Source of the DNA: TPA_inf: Saccharomyces
Taxonomy: Eukaryota
Reading direction: 5' to 3'
Length of the DNA stretch: 64,000 bases
Assembly (NCBI GenBank): GCA_000146045.2
Contig: BK006937.2
Span: forward strand, 252,621-316,620
A program made the translations under genes and the position numbers. The notes under the pieces are model-generated. The model did no database searches. It had not been told where the DNA came from and was given only the letters and a program-made list of their open reading frames with translations. Each line of letters opens with the position of its first letter. The first letter of the stretch is position 1. Of this stretch, positions 7,691 through 64,000 are shown one piece after another.

Positions 7691-9832
7691 TTAATTTGGC
7701 GCTATTTTTTTATACTTCCAAATCCTTGCTTTACAATCACCGCTACCAGTAGCAAAAACGTTATATTCTGGACCCAGCGGAGACCCGTTTGCCACAGCCA
7801 CAGATATAACTGAATTCCTATGACCTTGCAACATCAATAACGGATTGCCGGATTTCTTATCCCAAAACAGGACACCACGATCTTTGGAACCGGACAAGAT
7901 GTACTCATCATTTTGTGTGGTGGCCACGGACAATACAAAGTCTTTATGCCCGATATACGTAACTTCACAAGTGCCGGAATTTGGAGTTTTCGAATCGCTC
8001 TTGTTGTTTGCATTCTGCAAATTCCAGAGCTTAACAGATCTATCTAATGAGCCGGATACAACGCTTTGTCCATCTCTAGTGAAGACAACGCTATAAACAG
8101 AGTCCTTGTGGCCTGTACCGGATTCGTTTTCCGAATCTAGTCTTTCCACCAAGAATCCGGTCTCGGAATCCCAAACTCTCACAGCACGATCTAGAGAACC
8201 AGCAGCGATGTATTTACCATCACCTGGTGATACAGCGACGGTGGTAACACCATCTTCAATGGATAAAGTCAATGAACACTGGCCTGTACGTAAGTCCCAA
8301 ATACGAACGGTACGGTCACCAGAACCGGAGACTAATTTGTCACCTGAGGGAAAGTAGTCCAATGAATAAATATCTTGTTCGTGGCCTTGAAGAATCATAA
8401 CAATCTTTCTATTTTCAATATCCCAAATTCTAATCAGTCTGTCTTCAGCACCTGTTGCCAAAAATTTCCCATCTGGAGAAAAACACACTGAACGGATATA
8501 CAAGTCGGATGATGGGGAAGACGAAGTGTTCAGGTTTTCCACATCTTTTGCCAATTCTGCTGCCGAAGTCATCGCTGTGGTAGTAATTGTGGTGGTAGTA
8601 GTGGTTGTCATTGTATTGTTATCCGTGGACGTGGTGGTGTTATTTTCAGTGATCGAATTTCGATGGTTATTGGCAGCAGAATCGTCAGATAGACGGGCCA
8701 CCAGAGAACCATCTGAAACGCGATACACTTGAGTAGTTTTGTTGCAGCCTGTGGCTAAGTATTCACCATCGTTACTGAACTTCACGCAACAAACAACTGA
8801 AGTATGATCCAAAGATTTGTGTAACTCAACGTCAATTTCTCTTGGTAGTGCCGGGTTGTATAAAATATAATAATCATTTGTTTGCTTCTTCAGAGCATCG
8901 GGAACAGACTGGGAATCTAGATCCAAAAGGAAAGGTGGGATAGGTTTAGAGTGGTTTGCTCTTTGATTATAAGGGACTAAGTAGTGATCCTGGTGCAAAC
9001 TAGCCGGGGTGGCGTCTTCCTCCTTAGGTTTGATTTCAGTTTCAGTTGCGGTGGTAGTGGTGGCCGTGGTGGCGGATCCGGTGTCATTTATCTTCGAGGT
9101 ATTATTATTTTCCGGTTCAGTTTCTTTCAACGTAGATTCAGGTGCCTTGACAGAGGGTAAAGTAGTGGTCTCTTTAGAAGTAGGAGATCCGTTGATGGCT
9201 GTGTTACTCAATGGTGCCACGGAAACCTGGGGAGGTGGTTGCTGTTGTTGAAGTTGCTGCTGTTGCAGTTGCTGTTGTGGTAGTTGTTGTTGGGCGTTTG
9301 AGGACACCACAGGCAAAGTGGTGGTAGGCAACTGTGAGCCAACCAGATTAGGACGGCTAGCTTGTACTGGGAAGGCCGATGGCGAACCAGTAGTTGTGTT
9401 TGCTGCTGGAGTGGCGGTGGCCGAAGTAGTAGCCGGTGGTTGTTGCGCAACTGGAACAGATGCAGATGCAGCGGCTAGCTGCTGCTGTTGCTGTTGTAAA
9501 TGCTGCTGGACCTGTTGCTGCTGTTGCTGTTGCCGCTGTTGCTGGACGGTCAAAGATGCAATTTGATGGTCTCTTTGCTCCAGCCCTAGTTTCAAGTGCT
9601 TGATCTCTTCTTCGTACGCGTCCTTCATTTTCCTGTGAGTTAGTTCCAGTTCGTAGACGGTGTTTCTTATCTGCTGCATCTCAGCCAGCTGCTGGTTCAT
9701 TTTGAAATCGTAATCCTTTTGGTTTTGAAGACGGTAGGTATTTGCCTCTTGTGAGACTTGGAGAAACTCCTGTCTGATGGCATCGAGAAGCTCATTCAGC
9801 TTATTCTGCGTATTCGAAACGCTGGCAGTCAT
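7691..9832 (-). CDS. TUP1: General transcriptional corepressor with WD40 repeats
   Basis: 713-aa ORF with an N-terminal coiled coil, poly-Q tracts encoded by CAG/CAA runs at about 9210-9560, and seven C-terminal WD40 repeats (GH...WD motifs). Confidence 0.95.
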
Positions 9833-10771
9833 ATTGGTTTGGATGGAAAGCTGATTTCTTTCTTCCCCTGCTTATCAAAAAAGACAAAAAAACAATAGAA
9901 AAAGAGTAGTGGTGTGCGAAAGGTAACTTGGCGTGAAAGAAAATTAAACAATTGCAGAAGGACAGATAGAGGGGCACGTGTTCAGCCAGTTGTTCTTGCT
10001 TCGCTGATGTTTATCAATTGGGGGTAGATGGGGGAATTTCTCTCTATTTGTTTACTTATGTACTTGTTATTTTGTTTTGTTGTTTGTTGCTTTGACGGGA
10101 GAGCTTTTTAATTTTTTCGCAGTTTTTCAGTGTTTTTTGAAAAGTACGAAAAATTAAGGTCCGTCGGTAGCGATAATGTAAGAGGGTTCTGTCTCTAAAA
10201 ATGTTAGGGTGAAAGTTCCAAAAAATTATTAACTCCTAGATTGCTCAGCCAAAAAGAAGGGTAAATTAGGGCTTTCCTGGTTTATTTATTTGTTTATGTT
10301 GTTCTTATATACATATGTTTATGTCTTTTTATGTACAAATAATGATGTTTACAATGAAACATCTGTTATGCTATCAAAAACGTCAGCGCATTGTTTTATA
10401 GCTGAAGAAGTTACAACGGATAACGGTCTGATTTGCGGCCTGGCAATGCTTGGTAAAACTAAATATCAATTTTACGAATTATTTACTGTATATAGTATTC
10501 AGTCCCTCACTCAACTGGCGTCAAGAGTGAAGAAGGGCGGCCTCATTATGGCTCGCCTTATTCTGTTCACCCTCTGCGCTCTTCCCGTATTATTTCATTT
10601 TATTTTGTTTATGCTTCAATATCTTGTATTTGTTTACATTGAAAAATGATTGGAAAAAGGTCACATTGAAATCAAAACAGTGAAGAAGCAGACAGACAAG
10701 AAGGTCATTAGATAGATAAACAGGAACAATAAAAAAAAGAAAGCGAAACAAGACAATCCAACGTGCGCAAA

Positions 10772-12447: not shown

Positions 12448-14226
12448 ATGGCTTTGGAACCTATTGATTATACTACTCACTCGAGAGAGATCGACGCAGA
12501 GTACCTGAAGATTGTCAGAGGCTCCGATCCTGACACCACCTGGTTGATTATTTCACCCAATGCGAAAAAAGAATACGAACCTGAGTCTACCGGTTCCTCC
12601 TTTCACGATTTCTTGCAATTGTTTGATGAAACCAAGGTCCAGTACGGACTGGCACGTGTGTCCCCACCAGGGTCAGACGTTGAGAAGATTATTATCATTG
12701 GTTGGTGTCCTGATTCTGCGCCATTGAAGACAAGGGCCTCTTTCGCCGCCAATTTTGCTGCAGTTGCTAATAATCTGTTCAAGGGTTACCACGTTCAAGT
12801 TACCGCCAGAGACGAGGACGATCTTGACGAAAATGAACTGTTGATGAAAATCAGTAACGCGGCCGGTGCCCGTTATTCTATTCAGACTTCCTCCAAGCAA
12901 CAGGGGAAGGCTTCCACTCCTCCCGTGAAGAAATCCTTCACACCTTCCAAGAGCCCTGCTCCAGTTTCTAAGAAGGAACCAGTCAAGACTCCTTCCCCAG
13001 CACCTGCTGCTAAGATTTCTTCCCGTGTTAACGACAACAATGACGACGACGATTGGAATGAGCCTGAATTAAAGGAACGCGACTTCGATCAGGCTCCCCT
13101 GAAACCAAATCAATCATCTTACAAACCAATTGGCAAAATCGACTTGCAAAAAGTGATTGCTGAAGAAAAGGCTAAGGAGGACCCACGTCTTGTTCAAAAG
13201 CCAACCGCTGCTGGTTCCAAGATTGATCCTAGTTCTGATATCGCTAATTTAAAGAACGAATCAAAATTAAAGAGGGACTCCGAGTTTAACTCCTTTTTGG
13301 GCACCACTAAACCCCCCTCCATGACGGAATCTTCATTAAAGAATGATGATGATAAAGTCATTAAGGGTTTTAGAAACGAGAAATCACCTGCTCAATTATG
13401 GGCCGAAAGAAAGGCAAAGCAAAACAGCGGCAACGCCGAAACTAAGGCTGAGGCACCAAAACCTGAAGTTCCAGAAGATGAGCCTGAAGGTGAACCTGAC
13501 GTCAAAGATTTGAAATCAAAATTTGAAGGATTGGCCGCTTCAGAAAAAGAGGAGGAAGAAATGGAAAACAAATTTGCTCCTCCTCCAAAGAAATCAGAAC
13601 CAACTATTATCTCACCAAAACCCTTCTCCAAGCCACAAGAACCTGTGAAAGCTGAAGAAGCCGAGCAGCCTAAGACTGATTACAAGAAGATCGGCAACCC
13701 ATTACCCGGTATGCACATTGAAGCGGATAATGAGGAAGAACCAGAAGAGAATGATGATGACTGGGATGATGATGAAGACGAGGCTGCTCAACCTCCTTTG
13801 CCTTCGAGGAATGTTGCGTCAGGAGCACCAGTGCAAAAAGAAGAGCCTGAACAAGAAGAGATCGCCCCAAGCTTACCTTCTAGAAACTCGATCCCAGCTC
13901 CAAAACAAGAAGAAGCACCTGAACAAGCACCTGAAGAAGAAATTGAAGAAGAAGCTGAGGAAGCCGCTCCACAGCTGCCATCAAGAAGCTCTGCAGCTCC
14001 TCCTCCGCCTCCAAGACGAGCAACTCCAGAGAAAAAGCCAAAGGAAAATCCTTGGGCCACAGCAGAATATGATTACGATGCTGCAGAAGATAACGAACTG
14101 ACCTTTGTGGAAAATGACAAGATTATCAATATTGAATTTGTCGACGATGACTGGTGGCTAGGGGAACTAGAGAAAGACGGCTCAAAAGGTCTCTTCCCCA
14201 GCAATTATGTGTCTTTGGGCAACTAG
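12448..14226 (+). CDS. ABP1: Actin-binding protein with ADF-H domain, acidic/Pro-rich linker and C-terminal SH3
   Basis: 592-aa ORF; the C-terminus (AEYDYDAAEDNELTF...WWLGE...GLFPSNYV) is a canonical SH3 domain, and poly-P motifs (PPLPSR ×3) are present. Confidence 0.95.
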   Translation: MALEPIDYTTHSREIDAEYLKIVRGSDPDTTWLIISPNAKKEYEPESTGSSFHDFLQLFDETKVQYGLARVSPPGSDVEKIIIIGWCPDSAPLKTRASFAANFAAVANNLFKGYHVQVTARDEDDLDENELLMKISNAAGARYSIQTSSKQQGKASTPPVKKSFTPSKSPAPVSKKEPVKTPSPAPAAKISSRVNDNNDDDDWNEPELKERDFDQAPLKPNQSSYKPIGKIDLQKVIAEEKAKEDPRLVQKPTAAGSKIDPSSDIANLKNESKLKRDSEFNSFLGTTKPPSMTESSLKNDDDKVIKGFRNEKSPAQLWAERKAKQNSGNAETKAEAPKPEVPEDEPEGEPDVKDLKSKFEGLAASEKEEEEMENKFAPPPKKSEPTIISPKPFSKPQEPVKAEEAEQPKTDYKKIGNPLPGMHIEADNEEEPEENDDDWDDDEDEAAQPPLPSRNVASGAPVQKEEPEQEEIAPSLPSRNSIPAPKQEEAPEQAPEEEIEEEAEEAAPQLPSRSSAAPPPPPRRATPEKKPKENPWATAEYDYDAAEDNELTFVENDKIINIEFVDDDWWLGELEKDGSKGLFPSNYVSLGN

Positions 14227-51740: not shown

Positions 51741-52847
51741 CTAGTTTAATACGGCAACTAGTTTTTCACCAGAGTTCTTACCGATTTTAATGTCTTCCAG
51801 GATACGAGGAACATCGTAAAGCCCGTTCTTATAGACCCTTGCTGGAATATGGTGAATTTGCCCATCACTAATCTTTGGATTGATGAACTTGACGAATTCG
51901 GTGGCAGCTCTCCTGGCTTCTGGGTCAGCAGGGAAAGTAATGCCACCAAATGGTACTTCATGGCCGCCTATTGAATACAGTCTTGTTCTGTCAATAGTGA
52001 CATTTTGCCTCCTATTCTCCTTTTTGACGTTTTCTTCTGTCAAATTAGTTAATTCGACAACGGTAGCATCCTGTTTATCGGCCGCACATTTGTACACTTG
52101 TTGAAGCGTATTTTGATTCGCGACACAGTCGACTAAATACGAGATATTGTTGTACTTGTGTTTAATTTGTTCTACCACGTCAATATCATGGTAATCAAAT
52201 AGTTGATCAGCACCATATTCTTTCAACAGTTTTTCGTGTTTCCGAGAAGCCACAACAATGATCTTGGTGAAGCCATTCAATTTATTGGCTAATTGGATGA
52301 GCGACTGACCTACTGCAGTTGCACCGCCCCATAATAAGATGGGGCCGTTTCTTTGTGGGGTTGATGGCTCCCACTTCAGGTTCAAGCCCAAGTTATAGGT
52401 CAACACCAAGCCAGCTGTGGTCAGTGACACTGGGATAGTGGCTGCCCCTTCCAAAGACCTGACAGGGCCGGCAGGTAGAACATCTTCACCCAAAAATTTG
52501 AGTTCATTGGGTGATTTGTAGGCAACCACAGTTGAAATAGCAGAATATTCAGCAAAAGCACCATTGGAAGGAAACCTTACGGAAGATCCGTGAATGAACC
52601 CATAAATATAATCACCAATAGAAAAGTCTTTAGGATCGACGGCTGGGCCCAATTTGACAATTTGGCCGGCAGCGTCACATCCCAGAATAGATCCTTGAGG
52701 CCCGACCTTGTAGTCAATGTGTGCCCAATCAGTCGGGTTACCAGCAACAGCGAGTGTCTTAATCAATACGAATCCTTCTTCCAATTCAGGAATGGGAACG
52801 CCCTCTTTGACAACCGCTTTACCGTCTTCAATGACGACAGCCTTCAT
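51741..52847 (-). CDS. Zeta-crystallin/quinone-oxidoreductase-like medium-chain dehydrogenase (YCR102C)
   Basis: 368-aa ORF with the MDR fold, a Rossmann GGATAVGQ motif and paralogy to subtelomeric YLR460C and YNL134C. Confidence 0.8.
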   Translation of the reverse strand: MKAVVIEDGKAVVKEGVPIPELEEGFVLIKTLAVAGNPTDWAHIDYKVGPQGSILGCDAAGQIVKLGPAVDPKDFSIGDYIYGFIHGSSVRFPSNGAFAEYSAISTVVAYKSPNELKFLGEDVLPAGPVRSLEGAATIPVSLTTAGLVLTYNLGLNLKWEPSTPQRNGPILLWGGATAVGQSLIQLANKLNGFTKIIVVASRKHEKLLKEYGADQLFDYHDIDVVEQIKHKYNNISYLVDCVANQNTLQQVYKCAADKQDATVVELTNLTEENVKKENRRQNVTIDRTRLYSIGGHEVPFGGITFPADPEARRAATEFVKFINPKISDGQIHHIPARVYKNGLYDVPRILEDIKIGKNSGEKLVAVLN

Positions 52848-53031: not shown

Positions 53032-53038
53032 TTAGTAA
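53032..53038. promoter_or_regulatory. Yap1-response-element-like TTAGTAA about 185 bp upstream of YCR102C
   Basis: An exact TTAGTAA heptamer in the promoter of an oxidative-stress-type oxidoreductase gene. Confidence 0.35.
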
Positions 53039-55180
53039 TATTGTCTATCATGGTTGCTTTATTCTTGGTGATATTACTCTCTGGGATTCGATGTGTTCTC
53101 ATCATCTGAAGGGTTTCCTATGTGTTGAAAGCCTATCCCACTAGACGGAGCCGCGCGCCAGCCGGGCGGATCCGAGACATCTTAGTCAGCTGAGACAAGA
53201 AAGGCACAGCTCTCGGACAGGAACTGCTGTCATATGAAAACCTAAAAATGTTTCCTGGAAATTCCATGACTGCGCAAAGTTTGATACGTTTATTGTTCTT
53301 CTCTACTACCGCACTTTCTATCTCGGAAACCTTTCAACTGAATGAACTATTGTTAATTGTATGGCGTGTGGCCTTGCTATTTCAGCAAATTTAGAGTAAA
53401 GTAAACTCCGTCGGACCAGTATAGTAACGAAACAAGCCATTGATTCTGCAGCATATTGCGACCAAAACCTGGAAATTGGTGGCTATGAGTTTTAATTTAT
53501 AATTATATGAAGACAAAGCTTGGAATGCTGAGTACTTTTTCTTCAATGCTGCTCACTGCCCAGAAGCGTTCAGAACAACTCTACTGGAGCCATTCTGCTT
53601 GAAGGAGGATAAAAATGCCAAGATCAAGTCTTTTAAAGACTCTATCCCTTTTCATCGGAAAAGCACTACAAGTTTATTCTACAGAAGTGGACAAACTGTG
53701 GAACTTGATCCATACTGAGTAAGTATGGAAGACTGTTAACTTGGAGGATTTTTCTCTGCTTTCTAAAGAAGGTTCACTGCTTTACACTCACCTAGGTTCT
53801 CATGAGTATTGCTAGCTAGTGCGAGTTTGATCTATACTTCACAGACTTTTAACACCCCGTTCTTTAAGTTTTCCCTGATTATCAAGCGGATTTCCAATTC
53901 TTATTCCCCACTATCGCACCTTTCTTATCTGAATTGTATTTTTGAGTGGCCTAACTGTAATCTTTTATTTTGTTTTCTAATTATTGAAGGCGGTTTCTCG
54001 AAACATTTCACGATTTCCAAAATTCAAGAATTGAAATTATGAACATAGAAGACAAAATGCCTTTTTTATCAACTATTATGAATTCTCTAGAAAGTGGTTG
54101 CAAAGGAAATAAATATGTATTTGCTGAGAGGAAAAGTTTGGAAGAACAAAAAGTATTTCTTTGATGGAGCTGATTATCAAGCATTCTTTACGGGGAGCTT
54201 TCGAAATTTTTTATATTCAAGGACATTTATGTTGTGTGGGTTATTAAACGTGGGACTTTGGAAATACATCCAAGAAGCACAATTGAGCTCTAACGATGAA
54301 CCGTTACCATAAAGATAGAGACATTTCTTTTGACTTAGAAGCTACATGGAGTACCAACTATTAATACACCTCTCCTAGAGAACATTTTTAAAATAGAATA
54401 AAATAAAGTAGCGCTCTCAACTACCCTTACACTTTTTTCCTTCATATCTGGCTAGAAAAGAGGGATTACATCTCGGAATCAAAGTTTTAATACTGCTACT
54501 ACGAACTGGTTACAATTCTATTTTTATCATACACGATACTTTGAACATCAACTTCTCTCAATACCATCCGCCTTCAGCGGCTACAATTACGTAATTGCAC
54601 CAAGGCATTCGCCGAGAGTTTACATATTTGCAGACCCTAACAGTATACGACTCCCAACACACGTTTAATGTTGTACGAATTCAAGAGATGGAAATATTTC
54701 TTCCGCGGAAGCCGTTTAAAGCAGACTGAATTTAGGCTTAGACAATAAGCTTCTGAACGAGGGTCCAAATCTAAAATTCGGATATTCTTTTTGACCGAAA
54801 GCGGAAACTTCACAGGCGCGCGTAAAAGGGTTTTTCAAGGCACCCCGGCACCCCTATAATTGGCATTCCCACATTCTGCGCATACGAATACACATGAGTG
54901 CCATAAAACAATACTCCACATACGAAACCTATGAAAGATGTATGATTCGTTCAGAAACAAGAGCATCTCCATAGAGATAATGAGATTGTGTGAAAGATGA
55001 GATATGGAGGATATGTGAGGTGCTAAATGAGCGTCTGTTAACGAATCGTTTAAGTAGTGATGACAGATGGAGGAACGGGTATAAATAGAGCTGCTTCAAC
55101 TATATGCCTTTGAGGTATGCGCTTTCATTTCACTATTTCTTGTTAAGATTACATCAGCACTAACAAACAAAACAAATACA

Positions 55181-55555
55181 ATGGTCAAATTAACTTCAAT
55201 CGCTGCTGGTGTTGCCGCCATCGCTGCCGGTATTGCCGCTGCCCCAGCCACTACCACTCTATCTCCATCTGACGAAAGGGTCAACTTGGTCGAATTGGGT
55301 GTTTACGTCTCCGATATCAGAGCTCATTTGGCTCAATACTACTTGTTTCAAGCAGCTCATCCAACTGAGACCTACCCAGTTGAGATTGCTGAAGCTGTTT
55401 TCAACTATGGTGACTTCACCACTATGTTGACTGGTATTCCAGCTGAACAAGTCACCAGAGTCATCACTGGTGTCCCATGGTACTCCACTAGATTGAGACC
55501 AGCCATCTCCAGTGCTCTATCTAAGGACGGTATCTACACTGCTATTCCAAAATAG
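55181..55555 (+). CDS. PAU3: Seripauperin (PAU family) cell-wall protein
   Basis: 124-aa [20 protein letters not shown]...[17 protein letters not shown]..., which is the PAU consensus. A TATA box tataaatag lies at about 55083. Confidence 0.85.
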
Positions 55556-56258
55556 AGACATGCCTTTACTAATGAACTTCCATAGACATTGAAAAATAAC
55601 GAAAGAATAAAAAAAAAATCTTTTTTTTTTTTTGATATAAATACAGTTGACTATATAAACATATATCAATACTATAAGCCTATATTTGATCAAGACGACA
55701 TTATTTAGGTGCATCAACAACGGAAAAGAAACTTTCTTCTAGGCTATCCTTCTGGGGAAGCAGTTGAAAGTGCTATCCAGTATTATTGCATATATTCTTA
55801 ATGAGTAGTGCTGAAGTTTGATACGTTTGGCTCTGTTGCTTTTATTTCTCCCACGAAAATAAATTGATTTCTTTATTTTTCAGTGTGTTGGCCCGGAGTT
55901 GTTTACACACATGTCTCTTTTTGGATTAATGCTGTAGATCAGGGACTATGCGAGCGACAAGTCAGAGTAACCATATTGAATTTTCGTCTCCTGTTATACG
56001 AATATTTGCATTTCTGTGCCTACTTATGTGTGTATATGTTTTTATTAGTCAGAAAATGGAGTAAGTGTTAAAGTAAGGATAGTGTTAAGGAGGTAATAAC
56101 TAAAGATTTGTAGGATAAGGCGGTGTTATTTGTTGCAATTTTCTCAGGGGTGGAGTGGAAATGGTTTGATTCAATTATCAGTTAAGCAAGGAAGAGTTGA
56201 AGGGCGAACATTTGCAATAATCCCAATGTCATTTAATGCGGGTCGGCTGAGACGCTCA

Positions 56259-56285
56259 ATATTCGGCCGAAAAGTATCATTCGGC
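56259..56285 (+). promoter_or_regulatory. Direct repeat ATTCGGCCG ×2 (18-bp spacing) in the ADH7 promoter
   Basis: attcggccgaaaagtatcattcggccgcat lies about 170 bp upstream of the ADH7 ATG. The palindromic CGGCCG core suggests zinc-cluster half-sites. Confidence 0.3.
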
Positions 56286-56449
56286 CGCATAATAAAATGG
56301 AATAGAAGATAAAGCAGATGTCACTAATTGAGCACCAAAACTCTGAGTAGAAATTATATAAAGAAGCACGAACATGACCTGCTTTAGATGTTGCTTGATA
56401 TTATTGAAATAAAAAAAAACATAGAACCACTGAAAAATACAAAAAAAAA

Positions 56450-57535
56450 ATGCTTTACCCAGAAAAATTTCAGGGCATCGGTATTTCCAACGCAAAGGAT
56501 TGGAAGCATCCTAAATTAGTGAGTTTTGACCCAAAACCCTTTGGCGATCATGACGTTGATGTTGAAATTGAAGCCTGTGGTATCTGCGGATCTGATTTTC
56601 ATATAGCCGTTGGTAATTGGGGTCCAGTCCCAGAAAATCAAATCCTTGGACATGAAATAATTGGCCGCGTGGTGAAGGTTGGATCCAAGTGCCACACTGG
56701 GGTAAAAATCGGTGACCGTGTTGGTGTTGGTGCCCAAGCCTTGGCGTGTTTTGAGTGTGAACGTTGCAAAAGTGACAACGAGCAATACTGTACCAATGAC
56801 CACGTTTTGACTATGTGGACTCCTTACAAGGACGGCTACATTTCACAAGGAGGCTTTGCCTCCCACGTGAGGCTTCATGAACACTTTGCTATTCAAATAC
56901 CAGAAAATATTCCAAGTCCGCTAGCCGCTCCATTATTGTGTGGTGGTATTACAGTTTTCTCTCCACTACTAAGAAATGGCTGTGGTCCAGGTAAGAGGGT
57001 AGGTATTGTTGGCATCGGTGGTATTGGGCATATGGGGATTCTGTTGGCTAAAGCTATGGGAGCCGAGGTTTATGCGTTTTCGCGAGGCCACTCCAAGCGG
57101 GAGGATTCTATGAAACTCGGTGCTGATCACTATATTGCTATGTTGGAGGATAAAGGCTGGACAGAACAATACTCTAACGCTTTGGACCTTCTTGTCGTTT
57201 GCTCATCATCTTTGTCGAAAGTTAATTTTGACAGTATCGTTAAGATTATGAAGATTGGAGGCTCCATCGTTTCAATTGCTGCTCCTGAAGTTAATGAAAA
57301 GCTTGTTTTAAAACCGTTGGGCCTAATGGGAGTATCAATCTCAAGCAGTGCTATCGGATCTAGGAAGGAAATCGAACAACTATTGAAATTAGTTTCCGAA
57401 AAGAATGTCAAAATATGGGTGGAAAAACTTCCGATCAGCGAAGAAGGCGTCAGCCATGCCTTTACAAGGATGGAAAGCGGAGACGTCAAATACAGATTTA
57501 CTTTGGTCGATTATGATAAGAAATTCCATAAATAG
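56450..57535 (+). CDS. ADH7: NADPH-dependent medium-chain (cinnamyl-type) alcohol dehydrogenase
   Basis: 361-aa ORF with catalytic-Zn ligands (C..H), a structural Zn CxxCxxC...C motif (CFECERCKSDNEQYC) and a GIVGIGGIGH Rossmann motif. Confidence 0.85.
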   Translation: MLYPEKFQGIGISNAKDWKHPKLVSFDPKPFGDHDVDVEIEACGICGSDFHIAVGNWGPVPENQILGHEIIGRVVKVGSKCHTGVKIGDRVGVGAQALACFECERCKSDNEQYCTNDHVLTMWTPYKDGYISQGGFASHVRLHEHFAIQIPENIPSPLAAPLLCGGITVFSPLLRNGCGPGKRVGIVGIGGIGHMGILLAKAMGAEVYAFSRGHSKREDSMKLGADHYIAMLEDKGWTEQYSNALDLLVVCSSSLSKVNFDSIVKIMKIGGSIVSIAAPEVNEKLVLKPLGLMGVSISSSAIGSRKEIEQLLKLVSEKNVKIWVEKLPISEEGVSHAFTRMESGDVKYRFTLVDYDKKFHK

Positions 57536-58337
57536 TCTATATACGTAATATTTTTCAGAATCTCTTAAAATGCATGTCAAATCTCGGAATTTATCATGAC
57601 CCATTACATAACAAGAGAAAAGTGGTTTGCATTGTATGTATACCTTAAACCAATTCTTCGGTAGTCACATGACCTATATATAGGGACATTCATTTCTTGA
57701 ATAGGATATTTCTTAAACTTAAGGGAAATTTTGATGAAAATTTAGAATCTCTCGACAACAGTGCAGAGCAGTAAGTTTTATTCAATACGAAATGTGTGCA
57801 GGGTTTTACCCATTCATGTCGAGTACGTCTACATTTGTTCTGCGATTTAACTTAATACTTAGCCTACTCATATGTATCGAAGCCAAACTATTAAATCTGA
57901 AAACTGAATACCCATTAAGTAGGTACATTAATGCAATTTTCGTCCGAAAGGTAGAGTGTTAATCATGCTTTTACTTCGAAATCTAGAGTCCGAGCATGTC
58001 TGATGAGGTCCTCTTAAAGCACTTCAATTTTAAAAGAGAAGAGCGCAAATTTTTACAAAGAATGCCTATATTAATATACTGTGCTATCTAAGAGGATGGT
58101 TCAATGGTTTGAAATGAGTTGAAAAATAAAGATTTACATAGTAGCGTGTATTCTTCACATTTTTGCATTCGGTAGATTTTCTACTCAAGACCCGTGCAGA
58201 TCACTATTACACTCATTATTACAAGTCATTGAGAACGAAATTTTGACATCATTACTAATAATGTTACTCATTAATACTTTATTAATGTAAGCGGTAGATA
58301 AACAAATGAACATGAAATTGGCTGCTGAAATGCTCTG

Positions 58338-60836
58338 ATGGATTCGATTACAGTAAAAAAACCTCGGTTAAGATTGGTTTGCCTGCAATGCAAAAAGATC
58401 AAACGGAAATGTGATAAACTGCGGCCTGCTTGCTCGCGATGCCAACAAAATTCATTACAGTGTGAATATGAAGAGAGAACAGATTTATCTGCCAATGTTG
58501 CAGCAAACGACTCTGATGGATTCAATTCCTCTCATAAGCTCAATTTCGAACAGCAACCTGTACTTGAAAGGACTGGGCTTAGATATTCCTTACAAGTGCC
58601 TGAAGGTGTCGTTAATGCTACGCTGTCGATATGGAACGCCGAAGATATGCTAGTTATAGTAGGATTAGTTACATTTCTGGATTATCCTTTTGCTGCGCAT
58701 AGTCTGGCGCAACATGACCAGTATATCAGGGCACTTTGTGCTTCGTTGTACGGCATGGCGCTTGTTGACTTTAGCAATTATGCTAATGGTATTCCTTGTG
58801 AAGACACATCAAGAAGTATACTAGGACCATTGTCATTCATAGAAAAGGCCATTTTTAGACGGATAGAACATAGTAAGCAATTTCGAGTTCAGTCTGCCGC
58901 CTTAGGGTTATTATACAATGCATTTTCAATGGAAGAAGAAAACTTCTCGACTCTTCTACCGTCACTCATCGCTGAAGTGGAAGACGTGTTGATGCAAAAA
59001 AAAGACTGTGAAATACTTTTGAGGTGTTTCTATCAAAATATTTATCCCTTCTATCCTTTTATGGACATTTCACTCTTTGAGAGCGATCTCACTAGTTTGC
59101 TTTTACAAGACGACAATAATCGTTGGAAAATTAGTACTGAAGTTAAAAATGTGCGCAAAAAAATAGAAACTTTGTCATTACTTACAATAGTAATGGCCAT
59201 GGCCTTGATGCATTCAAAATTGGATGCAAATCTTCTTTCAATGGTAAAAGAAAATGCCTCCGAAAGTGCCAGGAAACTTTCTCTTTTATGTCATAAACTA
59301 TTATGCCTCCTGGATGTATTTCGCTATCCAAATGAGAACACTTTTACTTGCCTTTTATATTTCTACGTTTCAGAGCATTTAGATCCCGAGAGTCCCGATT
59401 GTGTACTGAGCCCCACTAACTTGCTTACTCTGCACCATCTTTTAAATTTGTCCATGACCTTAGGTCTTCAATATGAGCCTTCGAAGTACAAACGTTTCAA
59501 AGATCCAGAAGTGATAAGGCAGAGACGGATATTATGGTTAGGAGTTCAGTCATTACTTTTTCAAATTTCTCTTGCTGAAGGTGATGCTGGTAAATCAAAT
59601 AGTGAATATATGGAGGCATATTTAACAGACTTCGAAGAATATATTGAAGCTTCCTCAGAGTATGAAAAAAGTTCTGCGAGTGAATCGAACGTGCAAATGA
59701 ATGATATTGTTTGGAATAAGTACAAATTTCACGTCATTTTGAGTAAACTAATGTCTGATTGCACTTCAGTTATACAACATCCGCAGCTTTTCCACATTTT
59801 AGGAAATATTAAAAGATCTGAAGATTTTATGGCTGAGAACTTTCCTACAAGTTCGATTTACCAACCCCTTCATGAAAAGGAACCAAATGCGATCAAAGTT
59901 GGCAAAAGTACGGTTCTCGATGTCATGGATATTCAAAAAACTGAAATATTTCTTACAAATATTGTGGGAAGTATGTGTTTTTTAAACATTTTTGATGTCC
60001 TATCGTTACATTTTGAAAAAAAATGTGTTATGCACTGGGAAGAATATGAAAAGAACTATCATTTCCTTACTTTGAAAAGTTTCAATGCATACTTAAAGCT
60101 AGCAGGGTTGATATCTGATTATCTCGAGAATAAGTTTCAAGGGAACATTTTAGAGAGTCGCGGTTATATCATAGATAAACAAATATGTTTTATGCTTGTA
60201 AGGATCTGGATGTTCCAATGTCGTATTTTGTTAAGGTTTTCATACAAGCAAGAAAGTCAGAAAAAATTGGCCTCTTCCAGTATATCCACTAACGATAATG
60301 AAAAAGAAGATGAAATGATTGTCATTTTAGAAAGACTTATTAAACACATTCGTAACCAAATGGCACATTTAGTGGATCTAGCAAAGGGAAAACTTCAAGA
60401 TAGTTACTTTGGTGCTTACCAAACTGTTCCCATGTTTAGATACGTTGTGTATTTGATCGATGTTGGCGGCTTAGTATCTGTGACAAATGGGTTTTGGGAT
60501 AAGATTTCCAGTGATGGTGAAATACCGCCAAAAGTACAACAAGCCGTGAGATTGAAATGGGGATTGGACTGCAATAATTCGAGAAGAATCAAACAAAAGT
60601 TAATAAGCAGCCAGAGTTTGCAGAGTTTCAATCAAGTTCTGTTGTGCCAGATGGAGGATGCAGTTCTCTCCAGTTCCTTCGCAATAAAAGCCAATACCGC
60701 TATGTCCCAAAACACGGCTGAAGAATTTTTCAATATCAGCGAAGAAGAGGCTTTAAATCAACTATTGGAAAACAACAATTTTGATGCCTTCTGGGATTTA
60801 TTAGGTGAAAATCTGAGCGATATGCCTTCTTTGTGA
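58338..60836 (+). CDS. RDS1: Zn2Cys6 binuclear-cluster transcription factor
   Basis: 832-aa ORF with an N-terminal CLQCKKIKRKCDKLRPACSRCQQNSLQCEY zinc-cluster motif and a fungal-specific TF middle homology region. Confidence 0.8.
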   Translation: MDSITVKKPRLRLVCLQCKKIKRKCDKLRPACSRCQQNSLQCEYEERTDLSANVAANDSDGFNSSHKLNFEQQPVLERTGLRYSLQVPEGVVNATLSIWNAEDMLVIVGLVTFLDYPFAAHSLAQHDQYIRALCASLYGMALVDFSNYANGIPCEDTSRSILGPLSFIEKAIFRRIEHSKQFRVQSAALGLLYNAFSMEEENFSTLLPSLIAEVEDVLMQKKDCEILLRCFYQNIYPFYPFMDISLFESDLTSLLLQDDNNRWKISTEVKNVRKKIETLSLLTIVMAMALMHSKLDANLLSMVKENASESARKLSLLCHKLLCLLDVFRYPNENTFTCLLYFYVSEHLDPESPDCVLSPTNLLTLHHLLNLSMTLGLQYEPSKYKRFKDPEVIRQRRILWLGVQSLLFQISLAEGDAGKSNSEYMEAYLTDFEEYIEASSEYEKSSASESNVQMNDIVWNKYKFHVILSKLMSDCTSVIQHPQLFHILGNIKRSEDFMAENFPTSSIYQPLHEKEPNAIKVGKSTVLDVMDIQKTEIFLTNIVGSMCFLNIFDVLSLHFEKKCVMHWEEYEKNYHFLTLKSFNAYLKLAGLISDYLENKFQGNILESRGYIIDKQICFMLVRIWMFQCRILLRFSYKQESQKKLASSSISTNDNEKEDEMIVILERLIKHIRNQMAHLVDLAKGKLQDSYFGAYQTVPMFRYVVYLIDVGGLVSVTNGFWDKISSDGEIPPKVQQAVRLKWGLDCNNSRRIKQKLISSQSLQSFNQVLLCQMEDAVLSSSFAIKANTAMSQNTAEEFFNISEEEALNQLLENNNFDAFWDLLGENLSDMPSL

Positions 60837-61050
60837 GAATACGGATATTTGGAAAGGCTAAAAAAAAAAAAACAAGCCAAAAACAAGAAACACTGTTATC
60901 CTCCACGTTTTTTCCACTGTTTTAAGACTCGACAAGACGGAAAGATTCCTCACATTTCGCAGTGTTTCTTTTAACCTGCTCGTCAATTTGAAAAAATGAG
61001 CATGGTTAGGCAGGCGGAATGTAATAGGTGCGGTGCGTATAAATAAGTAT

Positions 61051-61081
61051 CTCGGCCGTTCCTCTATTGCGCTCGGCCGAG
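61051..61081 (+). promoter_or_regulatory. Direct repeat CTCGGCCG ×2 (21-bp spacing) next to the TATA box in the AAD3 promoter
   Basis: tataaataag tat ctcggccg ttcctctattgcg ctcggccgag; the second copy is a perfect 10-bp palindrome, CTCGGCCGAG. Confidence 0.3.
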
Positions 61082-61269
61082 ATGTCCTACATGCATAAAA
61101 TAGATTAAAAAAAGGGATCACGATACTCAAATATGCATATAATAACAACAACACACTTTGCGGTAAATAGAAGGATAATATCGTAATCTTTTGCTGGTTT
61201 CGATGATGACTTGAAAAAATTCAATTACTCTTTCGATCATCTAGAAGAAGCATATCCATCGTGCTTAAA

Positions 61270-62361
61270 ATGATTGGGTCCGCGTCCGACTCATCTAGCA
61301 AGTTAGGACGCCTCCGATTTCTTTCTGAAACTGCCGCTATTAAAGTATCCCCGTTAATCCTAGGAGAAGTCTCATACGATGGAGCACGTTCGGATTTTCT
61401 CAAATCAATGAACAAGAATCGAGCTTTTGAATTGCTTGATACTTTTTACGAGGCAGGTGGAAATTTCATTGATGCCGCAAACAACTGCCAAAACGAGCAA
61501 TCAGAAGAATGGATTGGTGAATGGATACAGTCCAGAAGGTTACGTGATCAAATTGTCATTGCAACCAAGTTTATAAAAAGCGATAAAAAGTATAAAGCAG
61601 GTGAAAGTAACACTGCCAACTACTGTGGTAATCACAAGCGTAGTTTACATGTGAGTGTGAGGGATTCTCTCCGCAAATTGCAAACTGATTGGATTGATAT
61701 ACTTTACGTTCACTGGTGGGATTATATGAGTTCAATCGAAGAATTTATGGATAGTTTGCATATTCTGGTCCAGCAGGGCAAGGTCCTCTATTTGGGTGTA
61801 TCTGATACACCTGCTTGGGTTGTTTCTGCGGCAAACTACTACGCTACATCTTATGGTAAAACTCCCTTTAGTATCTACCAAGGTAAATGGAACGTGTTGA
61901 ACAGAGATTTTGAGCGTGATATTATTCCAATGGCTAGGCATTTCGGTATGGCCCTCGCCCCATGGGATGTCATGGGAGGTGGAAGATTTCAGAGTAAAAA
62001 AGCAATGGAGGAACGGAGGAAGAATGGAGAGGGTATTCGTTCTTTCGTTGGCGCCTCCGAACAAACAGATGCAGAAATCAAGATTAGTGAAGCATTGGCC
62101 AAGATTGCTGAGGAACATGGCACTGAGTCTGTTACTGCTATTGCTATTGCCTATGTTCGCTCTAAGGCGAAAAATTTTTTTCCGTCGGTTGAAGGAGGAA
62201 AAATTGAGGATCTCAAAGAGAACATTAAGGCTCTCAGTATCGATCTAACGCCAGACAATATAAAATACTTAGAAAGTATAGTTCCTTTTGACATCGGATT
62301 TCCTAATAATTTTATCGTGTTAAATTCCTTGACTCAAAAATATGGTACGAATAATGTTTAG
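61270..62361 (+). CDS. AAD3: Aryl-alcohol dehydrogenase (aldo-keto reductase family)
   Basis: 366-aa ORF (363 aa from MIGSASD) recognised as an AKR-superfamily aryl-alcohol dehydrogenase and a member of the subtelomeric AAD paralog family. Confidence 0.8.
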   Translation: MIGSASDSSSKLGRLRFLSETAAIKVSPLILGEVSYDGARSDFLKSMNKNRAFELLDTFYEAGGNFIDAANNCQNEQSEEWIGEWIQSRRLRDQIVIATKFIKSDKKYKAGESNTANYCGNHKRSLHVSVRDSLRKLQTDWIDILYVHWWDYMSSIEEFMDSLHILVQQGKVLYLGVSDTPAWVVSAANYYATSYGKTPFSIYQGKWNVLNRDFERDIIPMARHFGMALAPWDVMGGGRFQSKKAMEERRKNGEGIRSFVGASEQTDAEIKISEALAKIAEEHGTESVTAIAIAYVRSKAKNFFPSVEGGKIEDLKENIKALSIDLTPDNIKYLESIVPFDIGFPNNFIVLNSLTQKYGTNNV

Positions 62362-62989: not shown

Positions 62990-63899
62990 CACTACTATAT
63001 TATAACTTAGTGAATAAAGAGTGTTACAATAGTGAGGTGCATATTATTCTAATGTAAGGTCTGTATAAGTACGAAATATTCTGAAGTGGCATCCAGTCAA
63101 GCAAATGGTAATATTAAGGAACTTTTAAGTTAATGACGTCATGGTAGTGCTCGTACTTCAAGTCAAAGTGTTTATGTATTATGGTTGAAGAATAGAATAT
63201 TTTTATGTTTAGGTGATTTTAGTGGTGATTTTTCTGTAATATTGACATAAGTGTATATAAATTAAGTGGTTAGTATACGGTGAAAAAGAGGTATAACGTA
63301 TGTATTAAGGGAATTTATACGATATTTGGGCCCGCCGAATGAGATATAGATATTAAAATGTGGATAATCGTGGGCTTTATGGGTAAATGGCACAGGGTAT
63401 AGACCGCTGAGGCAAGTGCCGTGCATAATGATGTGGGTGCATTTGGTACTGATTTAGTGAGAATGGGCCATGGATTGGAGTGTGAGAGTAGGGTAACTTG
63501 AGAGTGGTATATACTGTAGCATCCGTGTGCGTATGCCCCATCAATATAAGTGAAGGTGAGTATGGCATGTGGTGGTGGTATAGAGTGGTAGGGTAAGTAT
63601 GTATGTATTATTTACGATCATTTGTTAACGTTTCAATATGGTGGGTGAACAACAGTACAGTGAGTAGGACATGGTGGATGGTAGGGTAATAGTAGGGTAA
63701 GTGGTGGTGGAGTTGGATATGGGTAATTGGAGGGTAACGGTTATGATGGGCGGTGGATGGTGGTAGTAAGTAGAGAGATGGATGGTGGTTGGGAGTGGTA
63801 TGGTTGAGTGGGGCAGGGTAACGAGTGGGGAGGTAGGGTAATGTGAGGGTAGGTTTGGAGACAGGTAAAATCAGGGTTAGAATAGGGTAGTGTTAGGGT
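62990..63899. repeat. Subtelomeric X element (core X plus TTAGGG-containing subtelomeric repeats)
   Basis: The core region has an ACS match TTTTATGTTTA at 63201-63211 and an Abf1 consensus CGTGCATAATGAT (reverse RTCRYN5ACG) at 63419-63431. From about 63485 there are iterated (T)AGGGTAA/TTAGGG motifs (Tbf1-type sites). Boundaries are approximate. Confidence 0.55.
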
Positions 63900-64000
63900 A
63901 GTGTGTGGGTGTGGGTGTGTGGGTGTGGTGTGTGGGTGTGGTGTGTGTGGGTGTGGTGTGTGGGTGTGGGTGTGTGGGTGTGGTGGGTGTGGTGTGTGTG
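63900..64000 (+). repeat. Terminal telomeric TG1-3 repeat tract
   Basis: Irregular (TG)1-3 TGGG repeats, gtgtgtgggtgtgggtgtgtgggtgtggtg..., run to the end of the window with no Y' element. Confidence 0.95.

Follow-up and report, generated by a model that had tools for sequence, protein, structure and literature searches.

Near the right end of Saccharomyces cerevisiae chromosome III, the dehydrogenase gene ADH7 and the aldo/keto reductase (AKR) gene AAD3 lie on either side of RDS1, which encodes a transcription factor of the Zn2Cys6 (zinc-cluster) type, and both reductase promoters contain two copies of the sequence TCGGCCG. The question raised by this locus is which protein, if any, reads these copies, and whether the genes form a local detoxification and redox module, as a preliminary description of the DNA had proposed. 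The locus occupies the right part of the window, by which we mean the whole stretch of 64,000 nt that was analyzed. In our judgment, the product of the intervening gene, Rds1, very probably uses the four TCGGCCG copies as upstream activating sites. It was observed that the sites are real and non-random, that they match the published Rds1 motif, and that sites and adjacency to RDS1 are conserved together. The binding of Rds1 to CGGCCG, the rise of ADH7 and AAD3 with RDS1 overexpression (as relayed by a later paper), and the vanillin phenotype shared by rds1 and adh7 are taken from the literature. Binding as a dimer, loading of several sites, and activation through exactly these copies are inferred features of the mechanism proposed below.

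Factor, motif, and the co-regulation of ADH7 and AAD3 are already in the literature. A motif table derived from the Harbison chromatin immunoprecipitation-microarray data lists kCGGCCGa for RDS1 in the high-H2O2 condition (H2O2Hi), a supplement of MacIsaac et al. 2006 (PMC1435934) gives CGGCCG as the Rds1 motif, and a later paper cites CGGCCG as bound by Rds1. A 2026 population-genomics paper (PMC13322483) tied the copy number of YCR104W, YCR106W (RDS1), and YCR107W to vanillin resistance; there, rds1 and adh7 deletions were vanillin-sensitive, and overexpression of either gene led to resistance. The same paper cites Tafere Abrha et al. 2023 for upregulation or overexpression of RDS1 raising ADH7, AAD3, and furfural tolerance and, on the strength of that citation, Rds1 is an activator at both promoters. 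Our literature search found no paper that points explicitly to the four sites, and no account of paired or triple sites, of a constant distance to TATA or ATG, or of conservation of the cluster in pre-duplication yeasts; a full-text search for the motif itself in a yeast-promoter context yielded what, from titles and abstracts, seem to be primers and unrelated uses only. What is added here is a precise site map, the shared geometry of the sites, and a regulator-plus-targets cluster kept from Lachancea to Saccharomyces, including accessory S. cerevisiae copies. Because factor, motif, and co-regulation had been published, the gain is one of detail rather than discovery, and the conserved cluster is itself a modest new detail.

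Paired Sites in the ADH7 and AAD3 Promoters

The TCGGCCG copies of the ADH7 promoter lie at positions 56263–56269 and 56281–56287, 186 and 168 bp before the ATG at 56450, and those of the AAD3 promoter at 61052–61058 and 61073–61079, 217 and 196 bp before the ATG at 61270. The two exact copies per promoter, spaced start to start by 18 bp (ADH7) and 21 bp (AAD3), are thus as first described, as is the presence of a zinc-cluster gene between the two reductase genes. Two details of that description had to be amended: the base preceding each copy, given as A or C, turns out to be T for ADH7 (ATTCGGCCG, both copies) and C for AAD3 (CTCGGCCG, both copies), and the ADH7 span of 56259–56285 becomes about 56261–56288. 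Taken as 8-bp sites, to which no strand is assigned, ADH7 site 1 (56263–56270, core at −186) and AAD3 site 2 (61073–61080, core at −196) are full palindromes of the sequence TCGGCCGA, one in each promoter; ADH7 site 2 (56281–56288, core at −168) reads TCGGCCGC, and AAD3 site 1 (61052–61059, core at −217) reads TCGGCCGT. All four have the form TCGGCCG[A/C/T] and match the published Rds1 consensus kCGGCCGa (T at −1, A at +1).

RDS1 (YCR106W) is encoded at 58338–60836 on the + strand. Its 832-amino-acid product has a Zn2Cys6 binuclear cluster at residues 14–49 (Pfam Zn_clus, E 5e-10), where the spacing CX2CX6CX6CX2CX6C near the N-terminus is that of Gal4-type factors; the cysteines concerned (C15, C18, C25, C32, C35, and C42) are unchanged across seven orthologues.

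DNA around Rds1 homologues was fetched for comparison. Gene starts in these sequences are automated calls, except for that of S. mikatae ADH7, which was placed by reference to gene length, and what is called here probable S. paradoxus is a synthetic-metagenome contig with an 83%-identical Rds1, the species being assumed. The sites align across the Saccharomyces species. ADH7 site 2 is unchanged in a three-species alignment and AAD3 site 1 is kept in all four Saccharomyces sequences; AAD3 site 2 is perfect in S. cerevisiae and S. mikatae and has one mismatch in probable S. paradoxus and S. kudriavzevii. The ADH7 promoter also has a decayed third site (56243–56250, TCGGCTGA, unstranded), 20 bp upstream of site 1. 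As this is a perfect CGGCCG in both probable S. paradoxus and S. mikatae, ADH7 ancestrally had three sites, and the S288C promoter lost one of them.

A common origin of the two promoters was considered and rejected: a repeat search found only the motif and a few flanking bases in common between them, so their likeness is at the level of the motif and does not reflect a duplicated promoter.

The preliminary description had placed both pairs close to the TATA region. This stands for ADH7, where a conserved TATA element (TATATAAA, 56355–56362, + strand) lies 73–91 bp downstream of the sites, but the TATAAATA adjacent to the AAD3 sites, at 61038, is not conserved in the relatives. AAD3 does have a conserved TATA-like element further downstream (TATAATAA, 61138–61145, + strand), 64–85 bp from its sites, and the two promoters therefore share the same geometry of sites and TATA. 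Overall, the sites occupy the position of upstream activating sites, 168–217 bp before the ATGs and 64–91 bp upstream of conserved TATA elements.

This positioning bears on whether the sites might have a role other than in transcription, as a meiotic recombination hotspot or as elements of a subtelomeric chromatin boundary. The 4156 hotspot motif of fission yeast, WNTCGGCCGA, stimulates recombination in budding yeast as well when placed in ADE2. The locus is also near a telomere: TG1-3 telomere repeats and subtelomeric repeat sequence occupy the end of the window (about 63150–64000), which puts the ADH7-RDS1-AAD3 module about 3 kb or less from the chromosome end, and one study (PMC10136053) appears to treat the region as a silencing boundary. 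Nevertheless, a steady position at about −160 to −290 from the ATG and 65–90 bp ahead of a conserved TATA is what characterizes a promoter element, and it recurs in contexts of other genera that do not look subtelomeric. We consider a purely non-transcriptional role very unlikely; a hotspot or boundary function may exist as an additional property but would not explain the constant promoter geometry, and a hotspot function would in any case add to a promoter function and not replace it.

Motif Enrichment and Conservation at RDS1 Loci

In the window, TCGGCCG has seven strand-wise matches where dinucleotide shuffles predict 1.31, and the CGGCCG core occurs only six times in the 64 kb; four of the six are the two promoter pairs, and the others, at 12860 and 52079, are inside coding sequence. 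Across the loci of Rds1 homologues, almost all CGGCCG copies are intergenic and upstream of reductase genes, most often grouped in twos or threes some 160–290 bp before the ATG. Twenty-seven of 32 copies fall within 400 bp upstream of reductase ATGs (6.7 kb), versus five in the other 103 kb, which is an 83-fold enrichment (binomial p 2.6e-28). Restricting the count to independent lineages, whose promoters are not mutually alignable, leaves 16 of 20 copies in those promoters (p 1.8e-17). Judging from this enrichment and from the aligned Saccharomyces sites, species that have kept RDS1 also conserve the motif in their orthologous promoters.

An unbiased search for words enriched in reductase promoters relative to the rest of the loci placed CGGCCG-derived words at the top at each length: GGCCGA and CGGCCG among 6-mers, CGGCCGA among 7-mers, and CGGCCGAA, CGGCCGAG, and the palindrome among 8-mers. 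The base ahead of the half-site is T in 52 of 68 instances. The consensus recovered independently in this way is the published Rds1 motif.

That a GC-rich hexamer should occur by chance in two AT-rich promoters is, on these figures, hardly credible. One of the 100 shuffles did reach seven TCGGCCG matches, but the shuffle test ignores clustering, and four of the six CGGCCG copies in the window form two pairs, each no more than 21 bp apart, that flank RDS1. The recurrence of the arrangement in independent lineages is a further argument against coincidence.

Rds1 and Other Candidate Readers of the Sites

CGG-containing sites are bound by many yeast zinc-cluster factors, and the sites could thus be functional but read mainly by another zinc-cluster or CGG-binding protein, the adjacency of RDS1 being incidental. 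A network-inference study put STB5, YAP1, and YJL206C beside RDS1 in a module of "alcohol dehydrogenase genes", and a published rds1 knockout in budding yeast left the hotspot activity of the TCGGCCGA element in ADE2 unchanged, so other proteins may also recognize this sequence. Yet the published Rds1 motif is an exact match to the sites, and the motif travels with RDS1 orthologues and paralogues in Saccharomyces, Zygosaccharomyces, Lachancea, and two accessory S. cerevisiae clusters. Neither the ADH7 nor the AAD3 promoter contains a Stb5 or Yrr1 consensus, and the pleiotropic drug response element (PDRE, TCCG[C/T]GGA) has no match upstream of ADH7, AAD3, or RDS1. The consensus sequences of Yrr1, Stb5, and Yap1 do not match at any of the four sites themselves (Yrm1 was not scanned for). 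For the Yap1 response element (T[T/G]A[C/G]T[A/C]A), the only match is a TTAGTCA 405 bp before the ADH7 ATG, which is not a proximal position, and AAD3 has none. We therefore consider it unlikely that another factor is the principal reader.

The paralogues also bear on this point. AAD14, AAD4, ADH6, and a third AAD paralogue have no CGGCCG in the 4 kb that flank them on each side, and the YCR102C promoter has none either. A general element of AAD- and ADH6-family promoters was accordingly rejected: the preliminary description had suggested looking for TCGGCCG in AAD-, ADH6-, ADH7-, and YCR102C-type promoters, and the motif proved not to be family-wide. Its absence from the unlinked paralogues and from the YCR102C promoter does support the word "local" in that description; what the motif marks is the physical linkage of a reductase gene to an RDS1-type gene. 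The larger proposal of a local detoxification and redox module working through CGG/CCG sites likewise gains support from the published motif, from the literature on RDS1 dosage as relayed in PMC13322483, and from the co-conservation of adjacency and motif.

The only other TCGGCCG near the locus (52078–52084) falls within the coding part of a dehydrogenase gene of the YCR102C type (51741–52847, − strand), about 770 bp downstream of its start. The promoter of this gene has a pair of Yap1-like sites, one at 53032 (TTAGTAA) and one at 53182 (TTAGTCA).

Besides the ADE2 result, several points weigh against the assignment of the sites to Rds1. The effect of RDS1 on the expression of ADH7 and AAD3 is known second-hand, through PMC13322483, and the supplements of MacIsaac et al. 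2006 (PMC1435934) contain the Rds1 motif only, with no entries for YCR105W or YCR107W. Conservation of the Saccharomyces sites is weak evidence when taken alone, because the promoters are 74–77% identical overall. Not every neighboring reductase gene has a site: none is found within 400 bp of the Zygosaccharomyces parabailii gene AKR338c, the L. fermentati gene AKR375, the L. nothofagi gene AKR342, or the accessory gene AKR284. Finally, the spacing of neighboring copies ranges from 11 to 26 bp, and its helical phasing is not significant (Rayleigh p 0.10).

Proposed Mode of Action

In each CGG|CCG, two CGG half-sites stand inverted and directly abutting, and with its flanking bases the consensus becomes the palindrome TCGGCCGA. 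Given this geometry and the way in which other zinc-cluster factors generally bind DNA, a single copy probably accommodates one whole Rds1 homodimer. With two sites per promoter (ancestrally three in ADH7), about 65–90 bp upstream of a conserved TATA, several dimers could load on each promoter. Fixed spacing was rejected, and a fixed cooperative geometry is not supported; since the 11–26-bp spacing is variable and shows no significant phasing, we propose additive loading of several dimers instead. Activation by the loaded dimers would follow a rise in the amount or activity of Rds1, such as might occur under oxidative stress or stress from aromatic aldehydes. RDS1 and its targets, the genes for NADPH-dependent aldehyde reductases, make up a compact unit near the telomere, the members of which are inherited, duplicated, and lost as one.

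The PDRE (TCCGCGGA), read by Pdr1 and Pdr3, is, like the sites described here, an 8-bp palindrome in which two CGG triplets adjoin directly. PDREs often occur in several copies per multidrug-resistance promoter and are bound by Zn2Cys6 factors that control detoxification genes. The triplets of the PDRE are, however, everted (CCG CGG), whereas those of the ADH7 and AAD3 sites are inverted (CGG CCG), and in contrast to the PDRE regulon the Rds1 regulon found here is tiny and physically linked to its regulator. In the latter respect, the locus resembles fungal clusters with an in-cluster Zn2Cys6 activator, such as those for secondary metabolites, where the regulator lies among its targets, the motif is in the target promoters, and the whole is conserved, duplicated, or lost as a block. 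It differs from secondary-metabolite clusters in that the RDS1 targets are parallel, stand-alone aldehyde/ketone reductases and not successive steps of a pathway, and in that the cluster is subtelomeric and consists of two to five genes.

ADH7 is one of the main enzymes by which bioethanol and wine yeasts detoxify vanillin, furfural, and similar aldehydes. The exact cis-elements by which Rds1 probably drives ADH7 and AAD3 are direct targets for promoter engineering, and the sites help explain the higher tolerance that follows copy-number gain of the whole RDS1-ADH7 segment (PMC13322483).

Evolution of the Cluster

RDS1 adjoins genes of the ADH6/7 type, Aldo_ket_red genes, or both at all seven loci with called neighbors, and also at one accessory locus (L015, below); the regulator is thus found within a cluster with its proposed targets in several lineages. 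The probable S. paradoxus contig has the order ADH7, RDS1, AAD, and in S. mikatae (L001; Rds1 71% identical) the order is PAU, a truncated ADH gene, an extra AKR gene, RDS1, AAD. The S. kudriavzevii sequence (L003) is a partial contig in which no neighboring genes were called. Outside Saccharomyces, Z. parabailii RDS1 (47% identity at the protein level) has three AKR genes and one ADH gene as neighbors, that of L. fermentati (40%) has one divergently oriented AKR gene, and that of L. nothofagi (40%) has one AKR and one ADH gene. Some S. cerevisiae strains have an accessory locus (L008) with an RDS1 paralogue (8001–10469; 55% identity) next to two AKR genes, followed by an AAD-like gene and then by THI5-, SNZ-, and SNO-type genes. 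The other accessory locus, L015, was found through an 80%-identical ADH7-like protein and contains a divergent AKR/ADH pair, a truncated RDS1-like open reading frame, two AKR genes, and a PAU gene.

The presence of the unit in Lachancea and Zygosaccharomyces would place its origin before the whole-genome duplication. We lean toward the view that RDS1 and the reductase genes with multi-copy TCGGCCGA sites are an ancient, self-contained unit, older than this duplication, that was repeatedly duplicated, moved, or lost as a subtelomeric block and includes the accessory S. cerevisiae copies. The literature searched seems to contain no account of this evolutionary scenario. The comparative result is a small, clean instance of a transcription factor that has stayed in physical linkage with its target genes over long evolutionary distances. 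If the scenario is true, copy-number variation of the unit would amount to a ready-made, self-regulating cassette for aldehyde tolerance.

MacIsaac et al. 2006 found the Rds1 motif to be poorly conserved in S. bayanus, where the "orthologue" is 32% identical, and read this as rewiring. Our homologue search yielded no close RDS1 orthologue labeled as belonging to the S. bayanus clade, although several matches were unlabeled and one, 30% identical, was from a species whose name was unreadable. Because no close orthologue so labeled was found, the search suggests that the RDS1 cluster may be missing from the S. bayanus clade rather than rewired there.

The extra S. mikatae gene between ADH7 and RDS1 (6645–7679 of L001) encodes a 344-amino-acid AKR and has three CGGCCG copies upstream. 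S. kudriavzevii keeps site sequence matching that of this gene, at about position 1340 of L003; with the gene absent from both S. cerevisiae and probable S. paradoxus, a loss in their lineage is implied. The S. mikatae ADH7 orthologue (2971–3693 of L001) was called at 240 amino acids and without ADH_N, and its upstream CGGCCG pair is intact; it could be a pseudogene, or its start could have been mis-called. At the accessory loci, the additional AKR and ADH7-like genes have CGGCCG sites of their own. The truncated RDS1-like gene of L015 (10968–12620) adjoins a melibiase gene, and the accessory RDS1-like genes are 55–56% identical to Rds1.

Sequences Upstream of RDS1

Whether Rds1 might also regulate its own gene was considered, and autoregulation as a general feature was rejected: the S288C region upstream of RDS1 contains no CGGCCG, and its near-match (TCGTCCGA, one mismatch, 397 bp before the ATG) is not conserved. 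Probable S. paradoxus has a perfect site 649 bp before the RDS1 ATG that is absent from S. cerevisiae, and in the divergent promoters of L. fermentati and L008 a site lies 47 and 185 bp before the RDS1 ATG, respectively. As these sites differ by lineage, autoregulation would be lineage-specific at most.

The sequence at 57938–57953 (TTTCGTCCGAAAGGTA) is 81% identical to ADH7 site 1 and its flank (ATTCGGCCGAAAAGTA), but its core is broken, and it is not conserved in probable S. paradoxus. Two Yap1-like elements, TTACTAA and TTACTCA, are found at 58252–58270, 86 and 74 bp ahead of the start codon of RDS1. An oxidative-stress input into RDS1 is hinted at by these elements, but they are not conserved in probable S. 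paradoxus.

Genes and Chromosomal Context

In the right part of the window, a PAU-type gene (55181–55555), ADH7, RDS1, and AAD3 are all encoded on the + strand. The ADH7 coding sequence (56450–57535, + strand) specifies a 361-amino-acid protein of the ADH6/7 medium-chain type with the Pfam domains ADH_N and ADH_zinc_N, and that of AAD3 (61270–62361, + strand) a 363-amino-acid member of the aldo/keto reductase family (Pfam Aldo_ket_red). A (TA)n run lies near 63040. Among database proteins, the nearest to the AAD3 product is S. cerevisiae Aad3p (99% identity), and the nearest to Rds1 and Adh7 are unnamed clusters with 99% and 100% identity, respectively.

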